Shown: positions 3,765 through 64,000 of the stretch, in pieces | Layout: each line of letters starts with the position of its first letter | How positions within the stretch are numbered: the stretch's first letter is position 1 | From: Candidatus Caldarchaeales archaeon | GTDB lineage: Archaea; Thermoproteota; Nitrososphaeria_A; Caldarchaeales; Wolframiiraptoraceae | Length of the DNA: 64,000 bases | NCBI GenBank assembly: GCA_039630055.1 | Contig: JBCNVN010000001.1 | Location: 64,001-128,000, forward strand | Reading direction: 5' to 3' | Made by a program: the position numbers and the translations under genes | Notes under the pieces: model-generated | Told to the model about the DNA's origin: nothing | The model's input: the letters and a program-made list of their open reading frames with translations, nothing else | Database searches by the model: none

Positions 3765-6700
3765 CTAGCTGGAGAAACTTTCTAGAGAGGCTTGCCTGCC
3801 AACTTTCCCCCCGACCATTCTCTGTCTTGACAACATTCTTTCAATATTCTCTATAGACATATAACCGTACTCTTTAAGATATGGTGTTTTTACATATCTT
3901 GATAAAAGTTTTCTTGCGAGCTCGACATATTTCTCCACCGCCCCTCTGAACACGGTCTGCATAAGCTCTCCACCGCATCTAGAGCACTTGGTGGTGATCG
4001 GTAGCCTCCTATACTTTAAACCACATCTCTTACATCTAAATTCTTGTGTAAAGAATGCTCTAGCATTTCCAACTATATCCGGTAAAATGTGGGTCTGCAT
4101 TATCTTCTCAACTACTAGGGTAACGTCGATTCCTGCTAACTTATTAGCAATATCCAGCTGTCCAACTATCTTATCTAGCATTGAAGAGTGTTTTTTGTAT
4201 GCTGACTCTTTAACAGGCGTGGTTAGAGAAGTTTGTGGATGTGTGAACCTTGTAGACGTGTAAGATCCAGCTTCTCCAAGGAAATTCTTTACAGTTAATA
4301 TAATTCCAGATACTTTAGATATGTGTTCTCTATCCTCTGCCCTCCTATAAAATTCTAAAGGATATCTATCTGCAACATCGAGATTATGTGCTTGTTCATC
4401 TACCTCTTCTGGATAAACTATAGAGGTTATCAAGAGAGGTGTATCCATTCTTCCACCAATTCTATCTGGGAGATATAGTTTAGAGAAGTTTATTAGAGGG
4501 TCTAATAGAAGCATTATGCTATCCTCATCTCCATCACAGTCTCTTCTCTTTGCTGCATGAAGGACCGGGTGAGCGAAACATACAAGAGCATCCACTATGC
4601 CGATCACTCTCGATACGGAGGCTGCATATGTGTGAGGTGATAAGACTACTACGAGTTCTCCTATAACATCTTCAGGACTATTGAAATTATAGTATGGATT
4701 CATTCCTGCAAGCTTCACTAACTCATCATCAATCACTTTTGAGACCTTGAATAAGTGTTCAGCAGCTTCTCTCGGGATGATTATGTCTTGTATTCTCAGC
4801 TCAAGATACTGGTCTGGAGATGTCAATAGATTACCATAGATATCATGTGTATATCCAAGCTCTCTAAGCTTCTCTACCTTCGTCCCTATCTGTCTTGGAG
4901 TAAAGTGGGTTAGAGGAGCATTCGTTACATCAAATCTCATCGTGCCATCCTTGTATATGAAAAGTCCATGTTTTGCTCTCATTATACCTTTAGAGAGCTC
5001 TTCAGGGGTTCTGGTTAGACTAGTCAATCTTTTAACACCTTTAATCTTTGATGGGGGTGCTTCACCAATCCTTCTCAAAGCCTCATAAACTTCTTCCGCT
5101 ACATTCACCACGAACTTCTCAAAATAGTGAACGGTACCTCCACACTTCACGCAAGTGCTCTCCCCATCATACTTCTTCTCTGATCCACATGATTCACATA
5201 ATCCTATAATATCTGTTATAATTCCACATTTAGGACATCTATGCTTCCACGTCTTCATTCTGCAATTCGGACAAATTCTCCTAACCAATTCAACGGCCAC
5301 TCTCTCGTTATTGTTTGAAGCTTGTACGATGTCTCTTGAAGGCCCTCCACTCAACCCTATCGGGAAGAGGATGTTTACGGGAGGGGTCGTCTCTCTCTGG
5401 GCAGCTTTTTCAGGCCTACCCATTCTAGCGCTTATAAAAGTTCCAGTCTTATCCTTAATCTTCAACCCTGATAATCTGGATAAATGCTCAAGTATGGGGC
5501 CATCAACTAACCGTTCTTCTCTAAATGGTTGAAGCGTTGCGATGAGAGCTTTGAACCATGATTTGGGGATAACTATCCTATCAGACTCAACTCTATGCTC
5601 TACAAGTATCCTAATTAGAAGCTCTCTAATATCATCAGATCTAGGTAGATGTATTTCTTCATCTTTATGAATGAGCGGCCTTATACCATTTCTAATCCAT
5701 CTTCTAATCATCTCTGACTCCTCTACCGTTATGTTTGTCCAGAAAGCAGTGTATCGAGGGTGGAGAGGAGCACCGGTCCTAAAACTTATAATGATAGCCT
5801 CATCTACGGAAGGAATCTCATGGAAGGGGTCAGTGATTAGAGAATCGATCCTCTCTAAAAGTTTTCTATCAACTTTATCGAGAGAATTGACCAAGGCCAT
5901 CCTAAGCTCTTCCGCCCACCACTCTTCACAAAATCCCGGTGGATAAAGTATAACATTGTTCTCTATCAGGTCTCCTACCGATATCAGTATATCTCCAAGA
6001 AACAGTATTTTAGCAATCTTCTCTTTTATCCTCATATACTTTGAATGATCATCTAGTCTTAGGAGCTCACCATCCTCCGTCAATACATGTGGTGGCTCGA
6101 TAGTATCTACTACGGCCACGACCCCTCCTTTCCCTGGATAGTCCAACTTTAGCTGAGTTCCAGAGACAATATACCAATTCAAGACTTCCAAGGTTAATGG
6201 GTGGAGACCTATAGATGCTAAGCCTGTTGATGGAGCCCTTCCATATCTAATCCTCAAACCACCGAACCTATCTGGGAGAGAGAGTATGGGTCTTCCACCA
6301 ACAACTTCATCAAAGTATCTCTCATCTTCATTCTTCACTTGCTCCATCATCTTGATTACTTCTTTTATCCAATCCCAGCCATCTAATCCTACCTTTTCAA
6401 CGAGTTTTAGAACTTTCTTGGCTCTACCCGCTATACCATCGTTTACAACTCTGAGAGCTCCTCCTCTAAGATAGTTTGTCTCAATCCTCGGCAGGTTCCG
6501 GAATGAAGATACAAGTATCCTATCTGTCGGGATACCTGTTACTTCTACTGGAAGATTCTTCAAAACATACTCAATTATGTTATCTGGAACATTGTATTGG
6601 AATCTCGAGACCATCTTCTTATAGACTCTCAGTTCCTCTATGAACCTTACTATCTCCTCATAAGTGGGAATATACTTATCTAATCCCATTAGCCTTCTAA

Positions 6701-55797: not shown

Positions 55798-56163
55798 ATG
55801 AACAGAGTTTTTAAATATAGGAAAAGCTCGATGTTTAACCTACCAGTAGAAGAGTTTGAATATGTTGAAGATTTTGGGAGGCTTATCCGTGAAGCTAGGG
55901 AGAGGATGGGTTTAACACAGGAAGAATTTGCTAAACAATTAAATGAGAAGGTTACTATTATCAAGAAGATTGAAGCTGGTGAGTTTAATCCATCGATCGA
56001 ATTATCTAAGAAGATTGAGAGGTTGCTTAAGATAAAGATACTGGTCCCATCGATCGAAGAAGATCTTGAACAGATCTCAAAATATGTAGAAAAAGGAGAG
56101 AAGCAGAAAAGTGTATCTTTAGGATTATTCTTTAAAAAGATTGATGAAAAATCTAAGAGATAG
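55798..56163 (+). CDS. Multiprotein bridging factor aMBF1-like HTH protein (no Zn ribbon)
   Basis: VEDFGRLIREARERMGLTQEEFAKQLNEK..IIKKIEAG...KIERLLKIKI, SLG motif; upstream of hflX. Confidence 0.85.
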   Translation: MNRVFKYRKSSMFNLPVEEFEYVEDFGRLIREARERMGLTQEEFAKQLNEKVTIIKKIEAGEFNPSIELSKKIERLLKIKILVPSIEEDLEQISKYVEKGEKQKSVSLGLFFKKIDEKSKR

Positions 56164-56228
56164 TATAAATTTATGTAAAGAGTTTTAAAGAAGCTCTAGA
56201 ATTAGTAGGGATGGAAGGTACATAGAGA

Positions 56229-57479
56229 GTGAAGGTTGCAATCGTTCATAGAGTTAACCCGGGAGAAAATGATAATCTAGAAGAACTCAGCGAGCTTTGT
56301 CATACTGCTAACTATGAAGTAGTGTATAGGGTACGGCAAGAGAGACCTCCACATCCAGAATATAATATTGGTCCAGGGAAGGTGGAAGAGCTTAAAAAGG
56401 CTGTTCAAGAGCTGGATATAGAGAAGGTAATATTTGAGAACGAGTTGAAGCCTGTTCAAGAATATAATCTTGCTAAGAAGCTAGGCGTACAGGTAATTAG
56501 TAGAACTCAGCTCATCTTAGAGATATTTACTCTACATGCTAACAGTATCGAGGCTAAACTCCAGATAAAACTAGCAGAATTAAAGTATGAGCTATCTAGA
56601 GCTAAGGAGAAAGTTAGACTGGCGAAGAAGGGAGAGCAGCCTGGATTTCACGGTCTAGGAGCCTACGAAGCAGACGTGTATTATGATGAGATCCATAAGA
56701 GGATAGTTTCAATTAATAGAAAGCTTGAATCAATTAAAAAACATATGGATCTGATAAGGTTTGAGAGGAAGAAGCTAGGTATACCTCTAGTCTCACTATC
56801 TGGATATACCAATGCTGGCAAATCTTCTCTATTCAACCTCTTAGCATCAGAAGATGTTGAAGTAAATTCCCAGCTTTTCACGACTTTAACGCCGACCACG
56901 AGGATCGTGAGATTGGGAGGCAAACCGGTATTCTTATCAGATACTGTAGGATTCATCAGCAATCTTCCAACGCTACTGATAGAGGCATTCTATGCAACTC
57001 TTCGAGAGATTGCTTTATCAGACTTAATATTATTGATGGTCGATATATCTGAACCTCTACCTATAGTAGAGAAGAAGCTTGGAACATCTATTGATGCGTT
57101 AAACAGTATCGGTGCCAATGGTGTCCCAGTCTTAGTTGTCTTTAACAAGATAGACTTGGTAGATGAATCTGAATTAAATAAAAAGATTGAGAGGTTGGGT
57201 CTACCATATCAACATGTAGTGATATCTGCAAAGAATGGCATTAATATCGATAAGCTGGAGAAGACGGCATCAGAGATGTTGAGAGGCTTTATCAAGGTTA
57301 AAGCTACAATCCCCCATGATAGAAGATATATGAAGATAGTTAAAGAATTGTATAGAAAGTCAAAGGTAATGAGTATCGAATACGATGATAGCCATGTGAA
57401 GATAGAGGTGGAGACTACTGTGGATTTAGCGGAAAAGTTGAAGAGATTATCTATCGAAGGAGGATTTAGAGTTGAATGA
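56229..57479 (+). CDS. hflX: GTPase HflX
   Basis: GPGKVEEL, LILEIF, EAKLQIKLA, GYTNAGKS, FTTL, DTVGFI, NKID, SAK. Confidence 0.95.
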   Translation: MKVAIVHRVNPGENDNLEELSELCHTANYEVVYRVRQERPPHPEYNIGPGKVEELKKAVQELDIEKVIFENELKPVQEYNLAKKLGVQVISRTQLILEIFTLHANSIEAKLQIKLAELKYELSRAKEKVRLAKKGEQPGFHGLGAYEADVYYDEIHKRIVSINRKLESIKKHMDLIRFERKKLGIPLVSLSGYTNAGKSSLFNLLASEDVEVNSQLFTTLTPTTRIVRLGGKPVFLSDTVGFISNLPTLLIEAFYATLREIALSDLILLMVDISEPLPIVEKKLGTSIDALNSIGANGVPVLVVFNKIDLVDESELNKKIERLGLPYQHVVISAKNGINIDKLEKTASEMLRGFIKVKATIPHDRRYMKIVKELYRKSKVMSIEYDDSHVKIEVETTVDLAEKLKRLSIEGGFRVE

Positions 57480-57963
57480 TCAAGATCTTCTAGAAGCTGT
57501 TAGACTTATAGCCGATTACCAGTTCGGCTTTAGAGTAGGATCAAGACTCTTTCCAAATGAGTCTAAAATCCAAGTATCTAAGAAGACTGGTAGACCTAGA
57601 TACATCTTACTTGGAGATAAACTATTAGCAACTGTAAGGAGTAGTGATGGAATGTTGGCTTTAACATTATATGGTGGTGAGAGACTTTCCCATATAATCG
57701 AATGGCCAAGACGTAGGATCATAGTTAAAGACAGTCATCTAGATAAAGTTTTAGAAATGAAGGTTGTAAAGGCAGACTGGGTATCTTATGTAGATGAGAA
57801 CCTGGCTCCAAATGAAGAAGTATTGGTCTACAACTCTTCTAGAAGATTGATAGGTGTTGGGAGAGTAACTACATCTGGTAAAACCATCCTCACTGTTAGC
57901 GGTGGGACGGTCGTAAAGATAAGAGAAGTTGATGAGAAAATAAGACCTGATCCTGTACCCTGA
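57472..57963 (+). CDS. Pre-PUA/PUA domain RNA-binding protein (archaeosine TGT C-terminal-like)
   Basis: IADYQFG, SKKTGRPRYI, DGMLALTLYGG, PNEEVLV...LIGVG...VVKIR. Confidence 0.8.
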   Translation: MNDQDLLEAVRLIADYQFGFRVGSRLFPNESKIQVSKKTGRPRYILLGDKLLATVRSSDGMLALTLYGGERLSHIIEWPRRRIIVKDSHLDKVLEMKVVKADWVSYVDENLAPNEEVLVYNSSRRLIGVGRVTTSGKTILTVSGGTVVKIREVDEKIRPDPVP

Positions 57964-58086
57964 TATCTTATTCCTTCCATGATATTGAGATAGGCAATAT
58001 ATTATTTTATTTAAAAAATATAGGAAAGAATATTATACGACCTAGAACATAAGACTTAACAGAAGCCAAGTATAGGTGTTAAGGGT

Positions 58087-58467
58087 ATGAAAAAGCTCTC
58101 CCCTCGGCAATTGAGACGGATGCAGGCCCGCATGCTTGGAAACCTTGGATTAGATCTAAAAGAGTTGGGAATAGCTGAAGAAGTGGTTATCAGACTCCAA
58201 GACAAGGAGTTGAAGATTAAGAATCCAACAGTCATGTCCATGAAGATTGAGAATGAGACAGTGTACCAGATCCTAGGAGGAGAGGTTGAAGAAGTCTCAC
58301 CGACTATTGGTAGAGAGGTTGAAGAGGCTTACACTCCATCTGAGGAGGATTTGATGCTCGTGGCAGCCCAGGCTGGAGTAAGTGAGGAGGAAGCTAGGGA
58401 AGCCTTAGTAGAGACTCGTGGAGATCTAGCCAAAGCGATACTATTATTAAAGTCTAGGAAAACCTAG
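58087..58467 (+). CDS. nac: Nascent polypeptide-associated complex protein
   Basis: PRQLRRM, AEEVVI...IKNPTV...YQI, UBA domain EEDLMLVAAQAGVSEEEAREAL..TRGDLAKAI. Confidence 0.92.
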   Translation: MKKLSPRQLRRMQARMLGNLGLDLKELGIAEEVVIRLQDKELKIKNPTVMSMKIENETVYQILGGEVEEVSPTIGREVEEAYTPSEEDLMLVAAQAGVSEEEAREALVETRGDLAKAILLLKSRKT

Positions 58468-58473
58468 ACGGGC

Positions 58474-60273
58474 TCAATCTTCAAATCTTATAATGAATGG
58501 GTTTCCAGTCTCTGAAAGATATCTAAAAAGTACTATAGCTTCGTCAAGGATCTTTCTCTTTCTAAGATTTTTAACAATAGAGATATATCCTCCATCGATC
58601 TGAGAAGCTATCTCAGATTCTAGACTCGCTCTCTCTTCAATATTCTTAAATTTTTCCATAGGTGGATATACTAGGAAACTATAATCACTGATATCTTTAG
58701 GCTCCTTTAATCCTAGTCTACGATACGTTGATTTAAGCATTCTTCTAGCTGAGGATCTAGCAGTTCGAGAAGATAGGGATATTTTCCCAATTAGACTTGA
58801 ATCTTTCTTCAGTGAGTCTTTAAATATTCTTAAAACCTCATTAATAAAATTGTATGATTCTTTTGAAGCTTGTGGCCCAGCTTCATAGACGGTTCTCGCA
58901 GCATCGAGGACTCCATATAAAGATGAAGTATAGGCGATCTCTCCAAGATATCTTCTACCATATATCTGTTTAAAGAACTTCGTTCTTCTACTTAATGCAG
59001 TGAGACCGTGCATGGTTAACTCTCTAACTCTCCTCATGATGTATTCAATGTCTTTACCTGATACTAGAGCAAGAGATAGTACATTTATAGTAAAGATTGC
59101 ATGAATATCTGAAGGGTTTTCTCTAGGTGGAAGCTTGAAGCCAGAGTATAGTATATCAGGTGAATTAGCGACGGCATATTCGTGGTTAAAATTCTTAAAG
59201 ACTTCGCTGAGCTTCTGAAGGTCTTGATGCTTTAGATTATCTAAGACTACGGTAAACTTTATCTTATCTTCTGATCCATCGATCCTCTTAACAAAATCGA
59301 TCATCTTTTCATAATTTTCCAGTAGATCTTCAATGCTTATAGTTATACTGAAGTATCTCCTCCTTAGTAAACCAGCATGGAACACATGCTTAATCATCTT
59401 AAAAGTATTTTCAAATTCTTCTTTTCCACCAACTCTAATATTTAATTCATGTTTAATATTAATAATATAGCTAGATATATCTGAGATGATCTCTAGAGAT
59501 TCTTCTACATCGCTTGGAGCATGATAGCTTCTAGCTAAGATACAGGTTAGCCAACCCTCTAAAGGATATAGGTCTATCTCTCCTGAAAGATGCATCTCTG
59601 CAATATTTCTTGGGAGTAAGCTTTGTAGACAGTATTCTTTCATAATCGATTCTGAAGATTTTTCAATGAACTCTCTTAGATCTCCTGTATTCGAGATATT
59701 TTTTAAAGTTTTAGAAACATCATATATCGGCATCCCAATCCTTGTTAATCTATGTCTATACTTTTCCAAACCCATATCTAAAAGTATGTTGTTGACAAGC
59801 TCTCTTATGAGAGAAGATGTTAGATACTCTATTTTCAGATCTTTTAACTTCTCTTCAGCTATTGAAGCTATCTCCGAGGCCAATTTTAAACTAATGTTTG
59901 CTTCTCTCACTAGTGATCGAGCTATCTTAGACTTGTCAAACGGTTCTACGAGATTATCACTTCTCCTTACAATCATTAAATCTCTAGACCCTAAAGCTTT
60001 CCTAAGCTCTTCTAGAATTTCTAGCATCGTCAGACCAATCCTTGACAATTTATATTTACCAGAATCTTTATCAACTTCAATTAAACTCACATTTAGCATC
60101 TTCTTTAAATGATATGAAAATTTTCCAGCATCTTTATTCTTCTCTAATCCAAGCGAAGCCATCAACTCTGAGTAACCCATCTCTCTCTTAGATAGAAGCC
60201 TTAAGATCTCTGATCTTGTAGGAGATGCGATAGCGTCCAAGATATTATTGACATCGTTTGCAGTCTTATCCAT
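58474..60273 (-). CDS. ArsR-like wHTH + ATP-cone + degenerate class III ribonucleotide reductase (NrdD-like) fusion
   Basis: HTH (SPTRSEIL...AGKFSYHLKKM), ATP cone (IVRRSDNLVEPFDKSKIARSL...LTSSLIRELV), NrdD-like LPRNIAEMHLSGEI, TINV, DGGYI. The protein ends without a glycyl-radical loop. Confidence 0.78.
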   Translation of the reverse strand: MDKTANDVNNILDAIASPTRSEILRLLSKREMGYSELMASLGLEKNKDAGKFSYHLKKMLNVSLIEVDKDSGKYKLSRIGLTMLEILEELRKALGSRDLMIVRRSDNLVEPFDKSKIARSLVREANISLKLASEIASIAEEKLKDLKIEYLTSSLIRELVNNILLDMGLEKYRHRLTRIGMPIYDVSKTLKNISNTGDLREFIEKSSESIMKEYCLQSLLPRNIAEMHLSGEIDLYPLEGWLTCILARSYHAPSDVEESLEIISDISSYIINIKHELNIRVGGKEEFENTFKMIKHVFHAGLLRRRYFSITISIEDLLENYEKMIDFVKRIDGSEDKIKFTVVLDNLKHQDLQKLSEVFKNFNHEYAVANSPDILYSGFKLPPRENPSDIHAIFTINVLSLALVSGKDIEYIMRRVRELTMHGLTALSRRTKFFKQIYGRRYLGEIAYTSSLYGVLDAARTVYEAGPQASKESYNFINEVLRIFKDSLKKDSSLIGKISLSSRTARSSARRMLKSTYRRLGLKEPKDISDYSFLVYPPMEKFKNIEERASLESEIASQIDGGYISIVKNLRKRKILDEAIVLFRYLSETGNPFIIRFED

Positions 60274-60466
60274 ATTTCTCCAAGAATAGAATTAGAGTAT
60301 TCGCTCTAAAAAATTTGTACTCATTGTTGTAAAAGATATTATTTCGAGAATCTCAAGATAATTCAAGAATATTCTACCTATGGAAAATTACTAAAGACTA
60401 CAGGATAGATTGTAAGACTATGATACCTTATATATTCTCTATTCTTTATTTACTGAGAGGTCCTAT

Positions 60467-61348
60467 ATGGAAGAATTTTATAGTGGAATTCGAGAGATTG
60501 TAAACGATAAAGTTCATGGTTCAACCCAGATTGCTATAAACTTAATGAGGTTTCTATCAAGAAATTTAGAGAATGTTGATCTATACAAACTTAGAGAGAT
60601 ATTTGACGAAGTATTGAGTATTGCTGAAACTAGGACTTCCATAATCCTACCGATAAACATGCTACATATACTGAGAGAAGCTGTCGAATCATCTATAAGT
60701 AGAGATGTGAGATCAAATGTGAAGAGATTGATAGACTCTCTCCTTTCATATTATAGTCAAGATCTAGAATGGTCGGCAGAGAATGGGGCGAAGGCTTTAG
60801 AGGGTTACAGAAGAATCTTTACTTTAAGTTATAGCTCACAGGTATTAAAGGTTCTGAGAAAGATTAAAGATATAGAAGTATCTATTGTGGCTGGATGGCC
60901 TCTCTTAGATGGGTTAAGGGCTTCAAGAGAATTGAGATCAGTCGGTGTTAAAACTTTCCTCTATCCAGACTCCTCCATATATGAGGCCATAAATTCATCA
61001 GATGCCATCTTCCTAGGATGTGACGCTATTCTCATAGATGGTTCAATAATAAATAGATCAGGCTCTAGAATAGCCACATTGATTTCTAACTACGAGTCTA
61101 TACCCTCGTATGTGATCGGTGAGAGTCTAAAGTTAGATATTAGGTCTATATGGAAGCCTGAGGTATGGAAATATGTTTTTGAAGATGTAGAGACGGAGTT
61201 TCAAGTATTCGAAAAGGTTGAGTTTGAACTTATCTCGAAACACATCTCAGAGCTGGGCATAGATACTCCAAGAAATTTTGTAAATAAAGCCTTGAGAAAG
61301 ATGGAAGAATATACTAGAAAACTTTTAGAGAGTGTTCTCAGCAACTAG
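60467..61348 (+). CDS. eIF-2B alpha/beta/delta family protein
   Basis: DKVHGST, FTLSYSSQV, PLLDG, LGCDAI..DGSIINRSGS, FEKV, ISELG; lacks the Cys of the R15P isomerase THC motif. Confidence 0.8.
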   Translation: MEEFYSGIREIVNDKVHGSTQIAINLMRFLSRNLENVDLYKLREIFDEVLSIAETRTSIILPINMLHILREAVESSISRDVRSNVKRLIDSLLSYYSQDLEWSAENGAKALEGYRRIFTLSYSSQVLKVLRKIKDIEVSIVAGWPLLDGLRASRELRSVGVKTFLYPDSSIYEAINSSDAIFLGCDAILIDGSIINRSGSRIATLISNYESIPSYVIGESLKLDIRSIWKPEVWKYVFEDVETEFQVFEKVEFELISKHISELGIDTPRNFVNKALRKMEEYTRKLLESVLSN

Positions 61349-61388: not shown

Positions 61389-61994
61389 TCAATCTTGTAT
61401 TAAACTATCCCAGAAATCCAACTCATACCGCTGGATAGTCTTCGCAATAAACCTATATCTATCCCAATCCAGATACCTTTCAGCGATCTTCTCAGCCTTC
61501 TCATCTAACACGTTATATGGACCTGAAAACAATTCAAAGATCTTTGTAGATCTTATCGATATCCTCTTGACGTATTCTCCGAGATTCTTGACGTTCTCGC
61601 CCCAAACGGGAAGGTTTACGATTAAAGCTATGGCCACATCCCCTGGAGAACCATTCAATGCTAGCCATGAAAGAAAGTGTGTGTAGGATACTGCTTTGGG
61701 AGATACCTTACTATAGTCTAATTTGATATTGAGCTCATCTGAGAGCATGTATAGTGCTCTTAGAGCTTCGTAATCACCATCAACTAAGAGTTTGAAGAAC
61801 TCGAGCTCATCCATCCTACTAGCCTTAGAGAGTATATGTGAGAGAGCTTTCAGATCGTGTGGAATTATATATAGCTGATTCTCTACAAATCTTCTAAGTA
61901 TCTCATTGCTTGGTTCACGAATAGAAGGATGTTGAAGTATCTTCTTGTTCAGTTCTTCCAACTCTTCTCTCAGCTTATTTATTATGTAACCCAT
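61389..61994 (-). CDS. TenA-family protein (no catalytic Cys)
   Basis: ILQHP, FVENQLYII, AVSYTHFL, YELDFWD; overlaps the stop of the upstream tenA. Confidence 0.8.
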   Translation of the reverse strand: MGYIINKLREELEELNKKILQHPSIREPSNEILRRFVENQLYIIPHDLKALSHILSKASRMDELEFFKLLVDGDYEALRALYMLSDELNIKLDYSKVSPKAVSYTHFLSWLALNGSPGDVAIALIVNLPVWGENVKNLGEYVKRISIRSTKIFELFSGPYNVLDEKAEKIAERYLDWDRYRFIAKTIQRYELDFWDSLIQD

Positions 61995-62635
61995 TCCTCT
62001 TCACCATATGCTGCGCTCCAAAATAGGTATTCATATTTTGTAGAGAGCTCGAAATATGGCCACATCTCTTCTATGGATAAGCTGGAAGAGTCGACCTCGC
62101 TCTTAAATACCTCGACTATCTCCCTATATTCTTTCGTTAGATAGGCTGTTGCCCACTTCTTATAGAGGGCTGATGGATTTGATTCTAGCTTGTCTCTATG
62201 CTTTTCCGCGATCTCTTGATATGTCCAATAGCATGGTAGTAGTGATGCGATAGTAGTCCAATAGTCTTTTGAGTAGCTTGTAGAGATAAGATAATTCATG
62301 TAGGCGATATTTGTAGGGTTTGGAACCGTGTTTACCGCATCTCTTATTGAGAGCCCCATCTCAGAGAGGAGTTTTTCATAATTCGCCATCTCTCCCTCTA
62401 CAGTCATATATGCTAACTTTAACGCTATCTTGGAACGGTTGATATCAGGCGCTTTAGCTGAAACTATGCTTAAAACCTTAACGATACTTGTAAGATAGTT
62501 GTAGTCTTGGAGGATATAGTACTTGAACTTAGAGTATGGTAAAACCCCAGAGTAGAGCTCTACAACGAATGGATGTTCAATTATCTTCTCCCATATCTTG
62601 GAAGCCCGTTCCCTCAGTATAGATGATCTACCCAT
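61982..62635 (-). CDS. tenA: Thiaminase II / aminopyrimidine aminohydrolase TenA
   Basis: HPFV, FKYYILQDYNYL, LLPCYWTY (catalytic Cys), YEYLFW. Confidence 0.9.
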   Translation of the reverse strand: MGRSSILRERASKIWEKIIEHPFVVELYSGVLPYSKFKYYILQDYNYLTSIVKVLSIVSAKAPDINRSKIALKLAYMTVEGEMANYEKLLSEMGLSIRDAVNTVPNPTNIAYMNYLISTSYSKDYWTTIASLLPCYWTYQEIAEKHRDKLESNPSALYKKWATAYLTKEYREIVEVFKSEVDSSSLSIEEMWPYFELSTKYEYLFWSAAYGEEEWVT

Positions 62636-62677: not shown

Positions 62678-64000
62678 CTACCTGAAGCTAGGTCTCTTTG
62701 AAAGATGCTTGGGTAAAGTAAGCGGTCTGAATGGTTTTCCCTCCGTATCTTTCTTCAATTTCATAATGAGCTCATCTAGATTCATGTACTCGATTCTTCC
62801 AGTCTCCCTAATCCTTACCGAGAGTTTTCCCATCTCTCTTTCTTTATCACCGAAGACCACTATGTATGGTATCCACTCTACTTCTGCATCTTTAATCTTC
62901 TTATCCACAGTCTCTTCCCTATCATCGATATCTACTCTAATCCTTCCATCTTCCAGAATTTTAAGAATTTTTTGAGAATCTTCTAGATGTCTCTCTGCAA
63001 CAGGTATTATCCTCACCTGTGTAGGCGACAACCATACAGGTAGCATGGGTTTCCCACCACTCTGCATTATCATGTACGATTTTTCAAGTAGTGCATAGAT
63101 AACTCTTTCTATCGCACCGCTTGGAGAGCAATGTAAGATTATTGGATACTTCTTAACTCCGTCTTCATCTACGAATGTTATTCCATATTGTTTAGAGTTT
63201 TCTATATCTATCTGGTCCGTTGATAGGGCGGCAGCCTTCTTCTGGCTATCTATAAAATTGAGCTCCCACTTTAGTATGAAGTAGAAGAATTTCTCCTCCC
63301 ACATCTCTGCAAGAACTGGTTTACCGAACTCTCTTACAAGCTCATGTATGAACTCTTTATTTTCATGATAGAATTCTTTTGTAAATCTAATCGCCATCTC
63401 CAAGTCATCTTTAGTTAACCCTATTCCTTCAAGTACTTCCAAGCTTAGTCTAAGCCTCTTCTTCATCTCTACTTTTGCCTGCTCAATATCTTTACAGAAT
63501 GCATGAACATCAGGCATTGTAAAAGCTCTAAGTCTTTTTAGACCTGCAAGCTCTCCACTCTTCTCCCTCCTAAAACTGTATCTAGTCAATTCATATAACC
63601 ATAATGGTAGATGACGGTAAGAGATAACCATATCACTAGCCATCAAGAACTGTCCAAAGCAAGCTGCAAACCTTAAGAAGTATTCTTTATCTTCGCTCTT
63701 AATAATGTACTGTCTTGCGGGGAACCTATTCAGATACCTCTCCAAGCTTGGATGATGCATATCGTACATTATAGGTGTCTCAACCTCTATTCCACCATAC
63801 TCGACCACTTTCTCTGTAACATACTGTTCTAGAAGAGATTTTATGAGCCTACCTTTGCCCGGCCAACGCATATTTCCAGGATCGCTACCGCTCTCATAAT
63901 CTGCTATCTCTAGCTTTCTCATCAATTGGACATGGGGTGGCTGCTCCAAGACGGCTCTAGACTTAGAGATCTCGTAACGTGCTAGATTCTCCAAGTTTCC
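62678..64000 (-). CDS. thrS: Threonine--tRNA ligase, archaeal type (partial, 5' end beyond window)
   Basis: [58 protein letters not shown] anticodon-binding domain; frame open to the window end. Confidence 0.96.

Follow-up and report, generated by a model that had tools for sequence, protein, structure and literature searches.

We examined a stretch of 64,000 nucleotides (the window; positions 64,001 to 128,000 of contig JBCNVN010000001.1) from the genome of a Candidatus Caldarchaeales archaeon (assembly GCA_039630055.1). The window carries an intact open reading frame (ORF) that begins with ATG and runs for 599 codons plus a stop codon (Table 1); its product of 599 amino acids (aa) is here called DRR. 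The original prediction, made from the sequence alone, had described this product as a winged helix-turn-helix (wHTH), an ATP-cone and the body of a dead class III ribonucleotide reductase (RNR; NrdD), encoded by an ORF intact for 599 codons. This three-part anatomy was borne out by Pfam, profile searches and AlphaFold/Foldseek, as was the length of the frame, and all peptides quoted at the time (LPRNIAEMHLSGEI, TINV, SLYGVLDA, TARSSARRM and DGGYI) are present in the translation. Sequence comparisons and structure models suggest, with a probability of roughly 0.6, that DRR is a pseudoenzyme acting as a nucleotide-sensing, DNA-binding transcription regulator.

The C-terminal body of DRR derives from NrdD and has lost its catalytic parts

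The Pfam family NRDD (PF13597) matched aa 394-589 of DRR (profile positions 282-497 of 562) with 20.9 bits, under the cut-off of 26.2. A profile of 19 family members aligned with NrdD of T. maritima (4coi) at E 3.1e-15 and also found the NrdD proteins of S. thermophilus, T4 and P. copri. The AlphaFold model of DRR, computed from a 73-sequence alignment, reached a mean predicted local distance difference test score (pLDDT) of 86.2 and a predicted template modelling score (pTM) of 0.71. Its best Foldseek matches were all class III RNRs, from 9dau (E 2.7e-15) to T4 NrdD (E about 1e-10), with class Ia next at about 1e-8. Superposition with VIA-align gave Z 25.9 for P. copri NrdD (8p27_A; root mean square deviation (rmsd) 3.7 over 389 residues) and Z 24.3 for T4 NrdD, and class Id, Ia and II RNRs followed class III with Z 19-24. 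The comparison with NrdD structures that had been proposed as a check thus returned class III RNRs (9dau, 8p27, T4) as the best matches, and the profile, Foldseek and VIA-align all speak for an NrdD origin of the C-terminal region.

DRR has the same order of cone and barrel as NrdD of P. copri (8p27), S. thermophilus (9d3x), T. maritima (4coi) and T4 (1h7b), the same fold (Z 22-26) and the common motifs LP..A..H..G.I, NLPR, S..R(F/M), YS and GG; N397 of the NLPR-like motif, R511, Y531 and G561-G562 are retained in invariant columns of the barrel. In contrast to NrdD, it carries an extra wHTH, stays below the gathering score of PF13597 and lacks the finger-loop Cys, the Zn ribbon and the glycyl-radical loop.

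These losses, which the original prediction had read from the sequence, were borne out in the alignments. The DRR sequence contains no CxxC pair and no R-x-x-G-Y motif. Residues 192-599 of the model align with residues 26-538 of the T4 chain; since residue 538 lies, as we take it, just ahead of the T4 Zn site, DRR ends where the Zn ribbon would start. The ribbon is absent from DRR and from all 50 sequences without a Zn site, and present in the longer forms of other lineages. DRR has just two Cys residues, neither in a conserved column. Among the 73 aligned family members, no column outside the Zn ribbon contains 50% Cys or more, five members are free of Cys up to their last 60 residues, and in the profile alignment the finger-loop residues C329/C330 of T. 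maritima NrdD stand opposite non-Cys columns. The R-x-x-G-Y glycyl motif was found in none of 120 homologues. Every known RNR requires a thiyl radical; as conserved Cys and glycyl loop are both missing, ribonucleotide reduction by the known mechanism is impossible for the family, and its members are pseudoenzymes.

It appears very improbable that DRR has remained an enzyme, one whose old active site would now act on nucleotides without radical chemistry. In favour of this reading, DRR keeps substrate-pocket motifs of NrdD and its body is under purifying selection, but no conserved Cys, glycyl loop or activase was found, and we know of no precedent for such chemistry in an old RNR active site. 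The body is also fast-evolving: a body-only phmmer search of 1.84 billion representatives returned 18 proteins (E <= 1e-3), none of them a canonical NrdD. Conservation is much higher in the N-terminal 190 residues, whose mean column identity is 57% across Aigarchaeota, ammonia oxidisers and Bathyarchaeia.

The N-terminal domain is an ArsR-type winged helix

Pfam models of the wHTH type scored above their cut-offs on aa 11-84 of DRR, namely HTH_5 (27.9 bits, cut-off 22), HTH_20 (27.8 bits, cut-off 27) and DUF7347 (32.5 bits, cut-off 27.6). The NCBIfam scan of DRR gave sub-threshold matches alone, of ArsR type and 2-phosphoglycerate-kinase-cone type; the ArsR/SmtB model NF033788 reached 31.8 bits, under its cut-off of 55. 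Used as a single query against the PDB sequences, DRR matched ArsR only, and the N-terminal profile returned exclusively ArsR-type proteins (NolR, ArsR, HlyU and SmtB, E 1e-3 to 0.1). For a separate structure model of aa 1-190 (pLDDT 82.7), Foldseek found HlyU (template modelling score TMt 0.77), CzrA (TMt 0.80), SmtB, NolR, ArsR and CadC, with TMt values of 0.7-0.8 for HlyU, CzrA, SmtB and NolR.

The domain resembles ArsR/SmtB repressors (NolR 4omy, ArsR 6j05, HlyU 4k2e, CzrA 1r1u, SmtB 1r22) in its wHTH fold, in the order of its helices and in the C-terminal helix past the wing, which in DRR is a long helix spanning aa 78-94. It differs from them by a four-residue insertion ahead of the recognition helix (K-D-A-G-K-F) and by its fusion to a domain of the nucleotide-sensor type, whereas ArsR/SmtB proteins are small stand-alone metal sensors. 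In the translation, aa 1-98 contain no Cys/His cluster other than H55 of the recognition helix.

Within the recognition helix (DAGKFSYHLKK), G50, F52, Y54, H55 and L56 are invariant across Aigarchaeota, ammonia oxidisers and Bathyarchaeia; unless the nucleic-acid target is conserved too, this is difficult to account for. This invariance bears on the possibility that DRR is no transcription factor at all, and instead serves the class II RNR, as a partner without catalytic activity or as an allosteric buffer, or else acts as a nucleotide-binding scaffold, its winged helix making protein contacts. RNR large subunits do oligomerise via their ATP-cones, and the barrel of DRR keeps N397, R511, Y531 and G561-G562 and is under selection, which speaks for such a partner. 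Nevertheless, the unchanging recognition helix and the presence of locus-specific palindromes argue against this explanation, and to our knowledge class III and class II RNR subunits do not form hetero-oligomers. We consider it quite unlikely.

The ATP-cone is strongly constrained but not canonical

The ATP-cone (PF03477) was assigned to aa 100-172 with 36.5 bits (cut-off 25.8). In Foldseek searches, the aa 1-190 model matched the ATP-cones of NrdR (9a6n_B, E 9.9e-5; 9fvr, rmsd 2.2-2.5 over 86 columns; also 9fxk and 7p37). In S. coelicolor NrdR, according to excerpts of one study (PMC9110341), V48, K50, R51, E56, F58 and K62 contact the nucleotide or are sensitive to mutation. When these residues are mapped by fixed spacing, and not by structure superposition, they correspond to V102, R104, S105, E110, F112 and K116 of DRR. 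V102, E110, F112 and K116 are each kept in at least 90% of the aligned family sequences, and an invariant R103 stands one residue ahead of the position equivalent to K50.

Other observations on the cone weigh against the proposed nucleotide-sensing regulator. The cone alone found no match among the PDB sequences. Position 104 is Arg in this lineage and Thr or Ser in ammonia oxidisers and Bathyarchaeia, so that the K50/R51 pair listed in the excerpts is represented by R104/S105 in DRR and by Thr or Ser followed by Ser elsewhere, and the canonical K-R pair is absent. Given these substitutions and the shifted R103, the ligand may differ from ATP/dATP. Near-invariant contacts combined with altered K50/R51 positions describe a cone that is very constrained and yet not canonical. 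Judged by these residues, an adenine nucleotide is the likely ligand, and discrimination between ATP and dATP is not assured. The original prediction had referred to ATP cones as ATP/dATP sensors of RNRs and bacterial NrdR; DRR has such a cone by Pfam score and fold, but it is not a plain ATP/dATP cone.

DRR is conserved across much of the phylum and is under purifying selection

A word-indexed search yielded 140 homologues and a species-level genome scan 551 relatives. In the family to which the genome of the window belongs, 30 of 31 genomes, including all 19 of high quality, contain one intact copy without an internal stop. Across the phylum sample, 200 of the 301 genomes carry DRR, as do 85 of the 128 genera, and in most families presence is all-or-none (18/18, 12/12, 44/44 and 24/24 versus 0/14, 0/20, 0/10 and 0/11).

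The homologues differ in how much of the NrdD C-terminus they retain. Bathyarchaeial forms (730-780 aa) keep the Zn ribbon and a degenerate tail, ammonia-oxidiser forms (660-745 aa) end about 10 residues past the ribbon, and Aigarchaeotal forms including DRR (566-605 aa) have neither ribbon nor tail. The window thus carries the most reduced form, which indicates that the ribbon is dispensable for the role of the protein. A quick maximum-likelihood tree of 95 rows (73 aligned and 22 locus-read proteins; midpoint-rooted, with some long branches flagged) placed all 50 sequences without the ribbon on one side of a single branch, supported by a value of 99 in the Shimodaira-Hasegawa-like approximate likelihood ratio test (SH-aLRT); their sister is a pair of ribbon-bearing sequences.

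The ratio of nonsynonymous to synonymous substitution rates (dN/dS) was determined by the Nei-Gojobori method for loci L116 and L117, the only unsaturated pair (dS 0.34). It amounted to 0.129 for the whole protein, 0.19 for the wHTH, 0.027 for the ATP-cone, 0.077 for aa 176-245 and 0.159 for aa 246-599. All domains are hence under purifying selection, the ATP-cone most strongly. The body also appears to be kept, since stand-alone short proteins consisting of wHTH and cone numbered only 8, of which 4 are labelled 'partial' by their source. Selection and distribution had been named as checks by the original prediction, and both show that the gene is selectively maintained.

These data refute the explanation that the gene is an nrdD pseudogene, either truncated not long ago or in decay. 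DRR does lack the last 60-100 residues of NrdD, and the Pfam NRDD score is below its cut-off; however, the frame is intact and free of internal stops in 30 of 31 family genomes, dN/dS is 0.13, and the ribbon was lost on one deep branch with the same end point in all 50 sequences concerned. Nor do the orthologues retain a glycyl loop from which the present copy could have been cut back recently, as none of 120 has the motif.

Individual homologues deserve mention. One Bathyarchaeia relative of 763 aa (L050:7974-10265) has the Zn ribbon and 11 Cys, and its last residues, KRCGYAL, could be an intact glycyl-radical motif. This relative may be an intermediate form, or else an NrdD that has a wHTH and is still active. 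In other Bathyarchaeial proteins the tail is degenerate (RIRYFL, RQSYDF). The homologue at L027, from a record titled Candidatus Krumholzibacteriaceae bacterium, nests in the Bathyarchaeia clade beside L031, and its bacterial label is probably a binning error of a metagenome-assembled genome. At least about 14 homologues are named 'anaerobic ribonucleoside-triphosphate reductase' by their source, including some in aerobic ammonia oxidisers; this label is probably wrong.

DRR homologues of ammonia oxidisers are linked to nrdJ

A working RNR gene lies directly beside the DRR homologue in 28 of 80 loci, downstream on the same strand in 22 and tail-to-tail in 6. All 28 nrdJ-adjacent loci fall within the series L048-L083, whose records belong mostly to Nitrososphaerales, Nitrosopumilales or Conexivisphaerales, and in five of the eight remaining loci of this series the contig breaks off at the 3' end of the homologue or no more than about 1 kb from it. 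A further locus, L045, has a match to the cone only.

The palindrome GTCAA-N6-TT[GC]AC was counted in the 22 same-strand loci. The 15.5 kb that lie ahead of the homologue or separate it from nrdJ contain 16 copies and the other 272 kb none, a contrast that is descriptive and not equivalent to a P-value, because the pattern was derived from the counted sequences and the loci are related, and that carries correspondingly less weight for a regulator role. The exact pattern is present in 14 of the 22 loci, and the 8 others mostly have variants with one mismatch or an N7 spacer. In three loci the perfect form GTCAA-N6-TTGAC is located at about -88 of the homologue. At six loci (L049, L058, L061, L069, L072 and L079), the region some 60-90 nt ahead of the homologue start contains a sequence with the ending GGTTCAAATCC...CCCCA(T)C, which resembles the 3' terminus of a tRNA gene.

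The genome of the window encodes a single RNR

The genome to which the window belongs (1.54 Mb, 91.9% complete) contains one RNR large subunit, a protein of 903 aa with ATP-cone, lgN and lgC domains that is encoded on contig C2 and not on the contig of the window. As no match to NrdB was found in the genome, this RNR is apparently of class II (nrdJ). Exactly two ATP-cones occur in the genome, one in the 903-aa RNR and the other in DRR. No match to NrdR (TIGR00244) was obtained at E <= 0.01 in the genome, and no NrdR model appeared in the NCBIfam scan of DRR. Nothing scored above the PF13597 cut-off genome-wide that would represent a true NrdD. The best match to the one NrdG model searched, TIGR02495 (NrdG2), reached 53 bits against a cut-off of 131, which in a genome 91.9% complete does not prove absence; the neighbours in the window agree with the original prediction that no nrdG adjoins DRR.

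Two side observations concern RNR genes. On contig C10 (5643-5723; L001), a 1209-aa open frame contains a weak PF13597 match of 14.9 bits at profile positions 506-533, which by its score is not NrdD. At L108-L111 and L113 (genomes G015, G021, G022 and G024), the open frame that contains the RNR gene measures about 1280-1292 aa, and two of these frames have a TAA inside. The 903-aa RNR matches there in two parts with about 1 kb between them, a pattern suggestive of an insertion of the intein type.

Candidate operators lie upstream of nrdJ in this genus

Upstream of nrdJ, at a distance of about 130-168 nt, the palindrome C[TA]CTA-N6-TAG[AT]G was found in all seven genomes of the genus, in the most conserved block of that intergenic region. 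The copy in the genome of the window is the 16-bp palindrome CTCTAAAAATCTAGAG at C2:7649-7664 (locus L084, about 4331-4346), for which a distance of 122-146 nt from the RNR gene was noted. A position weight matrix (PWM) was built from the seven nrdJ-upstream sites; random 330-nt windows gave a 99th percentile of 10.8 bits. The nrdJ site scored 23.5 bits and was the only site above 20 bits in the 1.54 Mb, followed by 17.5 bits for the next best. The same arms (CACTAA...TTAGAG) recur at -157 of nrdJ in a second genus.

A T-rich box that spans roughly -44 to -37 relative to the ATG is presumably part of the DRR promoter. In the genus alignment of this upstream region, the conserved block (C)TCAATATTTTTAGAG is located at -44 in four of seven genomes, and at the same position four of seven genus members have the nrdJ-like 16-mer CTCAATATTTTTAGAG, which scores 12.5 bits.

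A number of observations weigh against control of nrdJ, and of its own gene, by DRR in this lineage. The genus PWM was built from the same sequences in which the sites were counted. Three other genera of the family have no clear shared site upstream, and in one of them the best match falls within coding sequence of nrdJ. The nrdJ palindrome is situated about 85-95 nt upstream of the TATA-like box and not over it, an unusual position for an archaeal repressor. Its arms differ by lineage (GTCAA versus CTCTA) despite the invariant recognition helix, and GTCAA-N6-TTGAC, searched with up to one mismatch, had no match upstream of nrdJ or DRR in this family. The DRR promoter of the window has TACAAATTTTTTAGAG in place of the conserved block, which scores below the best match of that promoter (10.8), and its left arm TACAA departs from the nrdJ-type CTCTA at three of five positions. 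In none of the 21 loci L004-L024, which are mostly Aigarchaeotal and include the order of the present organism, was an RNR gene found within the flanks of the DRR homologue. The neighbours there are housekeeping genes: wherever the flank of an Aigarchaeota locus is long enough, the convergent string NAC-PUA/TGT_C2-HflX-MBF1 almost always keeps its order.

Further candidates were rejected. The everted palindrome TAGAG-N6-CTCTA at the DRR promoter, another point that does not favour autoregulation, is one of 12 in the genome, compared with 7-15 sites for other spacings; only two of seven genus members retain its second arm, and with 25 similar paired 6-mers genome-wide the palindrome is not above chance. 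A PWM match in a second genus, CTCGAGAAAATTAGAG (15 bits), is ambiguous, as it lies inside the N-terminal coding region of nrdJ (S-R-K-L-E), and likewise does not help the case. The unified pattern [GC]TC[AT]A-N6-T[AT]GA[GC] recovered in the family loci only the genus sites already known. Secondary PWM sites (17 bits or less) lie beside an aminotransferase gene, a VIT-like gene, a class II aminoacyl-tRNA synthetase gene, an FGGY kinase gene and a KaiC-like gene, with no common theme. A hairpin upstream of the TATA-like box of nrdJ was unsupported (RNAalifold -1.58 kcal/mol, no compensatory pairs), and Rfam identified one tRNA only in six nrdJ loci.

The motif discovery upstream of nrd genes that had been suggested at the outset was therefore successful for the nrdJ palindrome in 7/7 genus genomes and for the GTCAA motif of ammonia oxidisers, but gave a poor match at the DRR promoter. 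From these sequence data, nrdJ is a possible target of DRR in this genome, at somewhat less than even odds.

Genes adjoining DRR and the question of another regulon

The features of the locus are listed in Table 1. The genes at 55798-58467 on the plus strand, which are convergent with DRR, encode an MBF1-like HTH_3 protein, an HflX-like GTPase, a TGT_C2 plus PUA protein and NAC. The IF-2B-family neighbour on the other side of DRR is kept only within the genus. Farther along, a pair of neighbouring genes of the TENA/THI-4 family (201 and 217 aa), which overlap by 13 bases, occupies 61389-62635 on the minus strand, and a threonyl-tRNA-synthetase-like gene (62678-63994) adjoins this pair.

Table 1. 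Position of DRR, its domains and adjoining features in the window
Feature	Position	Strand	Basis
DRR, whole gene: wHTH, ATP-cone and catalytically dead NrdD-like barrel	58474..60273	-	599-codon ORF plus stop; Pfam/NCBIfam domains
ArsR/SmtB-type winged helix-turn-helix, aa 1-98	59980..60273	-	Pfam, PDB profile matches, Foldseek
ATP-cone, aa 99-175; motif V102-R103-R104-S105...E110-P-F112...K116-I117	59749..59979	-	Pfam, Foldseek
NrdD-derived alpha/beta barrel, aa 176-599 (start approximate)	58477..59748	-	Profile versus 4coi, Foldseek, VIA-align
Divergent intergenic region, 193 bp, between DRR and IF-2B-family gene; presumed promoter	60274..60466	.	Sequence
IF-2B-family gene, divergent from DRR	60467-61348	+	Neighbour
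Everted palindrome TAGAG-N6-CTCTA, weak candidate operator	60293..60308	.	Between T-rich box and start codon

This neighbourhood raises the question whether DRR might be a DNA-binding regulator with a regulon other than RNR, one that couples adenylate or nucleotide status to replication, cell-cycle, translation-linked or IF-2B-family genes, perhaps with a ligand other than ATP/dATP. The absence of nrdJ synteny anywhere in this order, the conserved adjacency to NAC, PUA, HflX and MBF1, the 193-bp divergent promoter region that DRR shares with the IF-2B-family gene across the genus, the altered phosphate-contact residues of the cone and the poor match of the DRR promoter to the nrdJ palindrome would all fit such a regulon. 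On the other hand, nrdJ adjoins the homologue in 28 loci of ammonia oxidisers and relatives, the palindrome being confined there, and the only strong palindrome of its type in the genome of the window sits upstream of nrdJ. The secondary PWM sites beside unrelated genes show no theme, and the convergent arrangement with NAC implies no co-transcription. We regard a regulon without RNR as unlikely.

Proposed function and comparison with known systems

We propose that DRR arose from a class III RNR subunit that would have lost the thiyl-radical Cys, the glycyl-radical domain and, in this lineage, the Zn ribbon, retaining the N-terminal ATP-cone and the barrel with an ArsR-type winged helix in front. 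The protein, probably a dimer or higher oligomer held together by the RNR-type body, would bind DNA via its winged helices at palindromic sites of the 5-N6-5 type. An adenine nucleotide on the cone would change the oligomeric state or the DNA affinity, (d)NTPs (deoxyribo- or ribonucleoside triphosphates) possibly occupying the retained barrel or effector pockets, and transcription would thereby be coupled to nucleotide pools, as it is by NrdR in bacteria. The single class II-type nrdJ and the promoter of DRR itself would be the most likely targets, the link in this genome being only suggestive. The original idea of a pseudoenzyme repurposed as a (d)NTP-responsive regulator is thus upheld as regards the dead enzyme, its conservation and purifying selection; the regulator role is what synteny and palindromes point to.

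According to excerpts of two studies, NrdR is the bacterial RNR-specific repressor and consists of a Zn ribbon and an ATP-cone (PMC9110341, PMC12176259); those of the former describe it as rare in archaea. DRR is like NrdR in having a DNA-binding domain directly ahead of an ATP-cone of matching fold, and its homologues of other lineages are likewise associated with RNR genes and palindromic sites. It differs from NrdR in that the DNA-binding domain is an ArsR-type wHTH with no N-terminal Cys cluster in place of a Zn ribbon, that 420 residues of dead RNR barrel follow the cone, that the candidate sites are 5-N6-5 palindromes and not NrdR boxes, and that the protein is archaeal. An independently evolved analogue of NrdR, as suggested at the outset, is on this comparison a reasonable description. 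The closest known system is NrdR by function and NrdD by descent, and membership of either fails on defining features.

A further parallel is NrtR, a Nudix-like domain joined to a wHTH (excerpts of PMC2330246). In both cases the fold of a nucleotide-metabolising enzyme appears to be reused as a sensor and databases label the protein as an enzyme; as far as these excerpts describe it, NrtR differs by its enzyme fold and by the opposite order of its domains. The NrtR regulon was established by comparative genomics and experiment according to the same excerpts, whereas the regulon of DRR is inferred here from sequence. In the full-text literature searched, with subscription journals and supplements outside it, we found no description of an architecture combining wHTH, ATP-cone and dead NrdD, and no archaeal RNR regulator was found there either.

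In its widest form, our proposal is that much of the Thermoproteota (Aigarchaeota, ammonia oxidisers and Bathyarchaeia) controls the supply of deoxyribonucleoside triphosphates via a master regulator built from RNR itself: the wHTH would sit on palindromes at nrdJ and at its own promoter, the cone would read adenylate/dATP, the fossil active and specificity sites would bind (d)NTPs, overall and specificity signals would be combined in one protein as they are in an RNR, transcription in place of catalysis would be the output, and the whole would be an independent replacement of NrdR. Taken as a whole this proposal is tentative, and we hold it to be rather doubtful in all its parts at once.

DRR is a single-copy core gene in its own family and is present in two thirds of the phylum genomes sampled. 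If confirmed, its function would require the correction of database labels, as the designation 'anaerobic' reductase distorts metabolic inferences on anaerobic growth. If the proposed role is true, the DRR family would supply the missing archaeal RNR regulator, and an essential enzyme would have been turned into a sensor of its own substrates or effectors.

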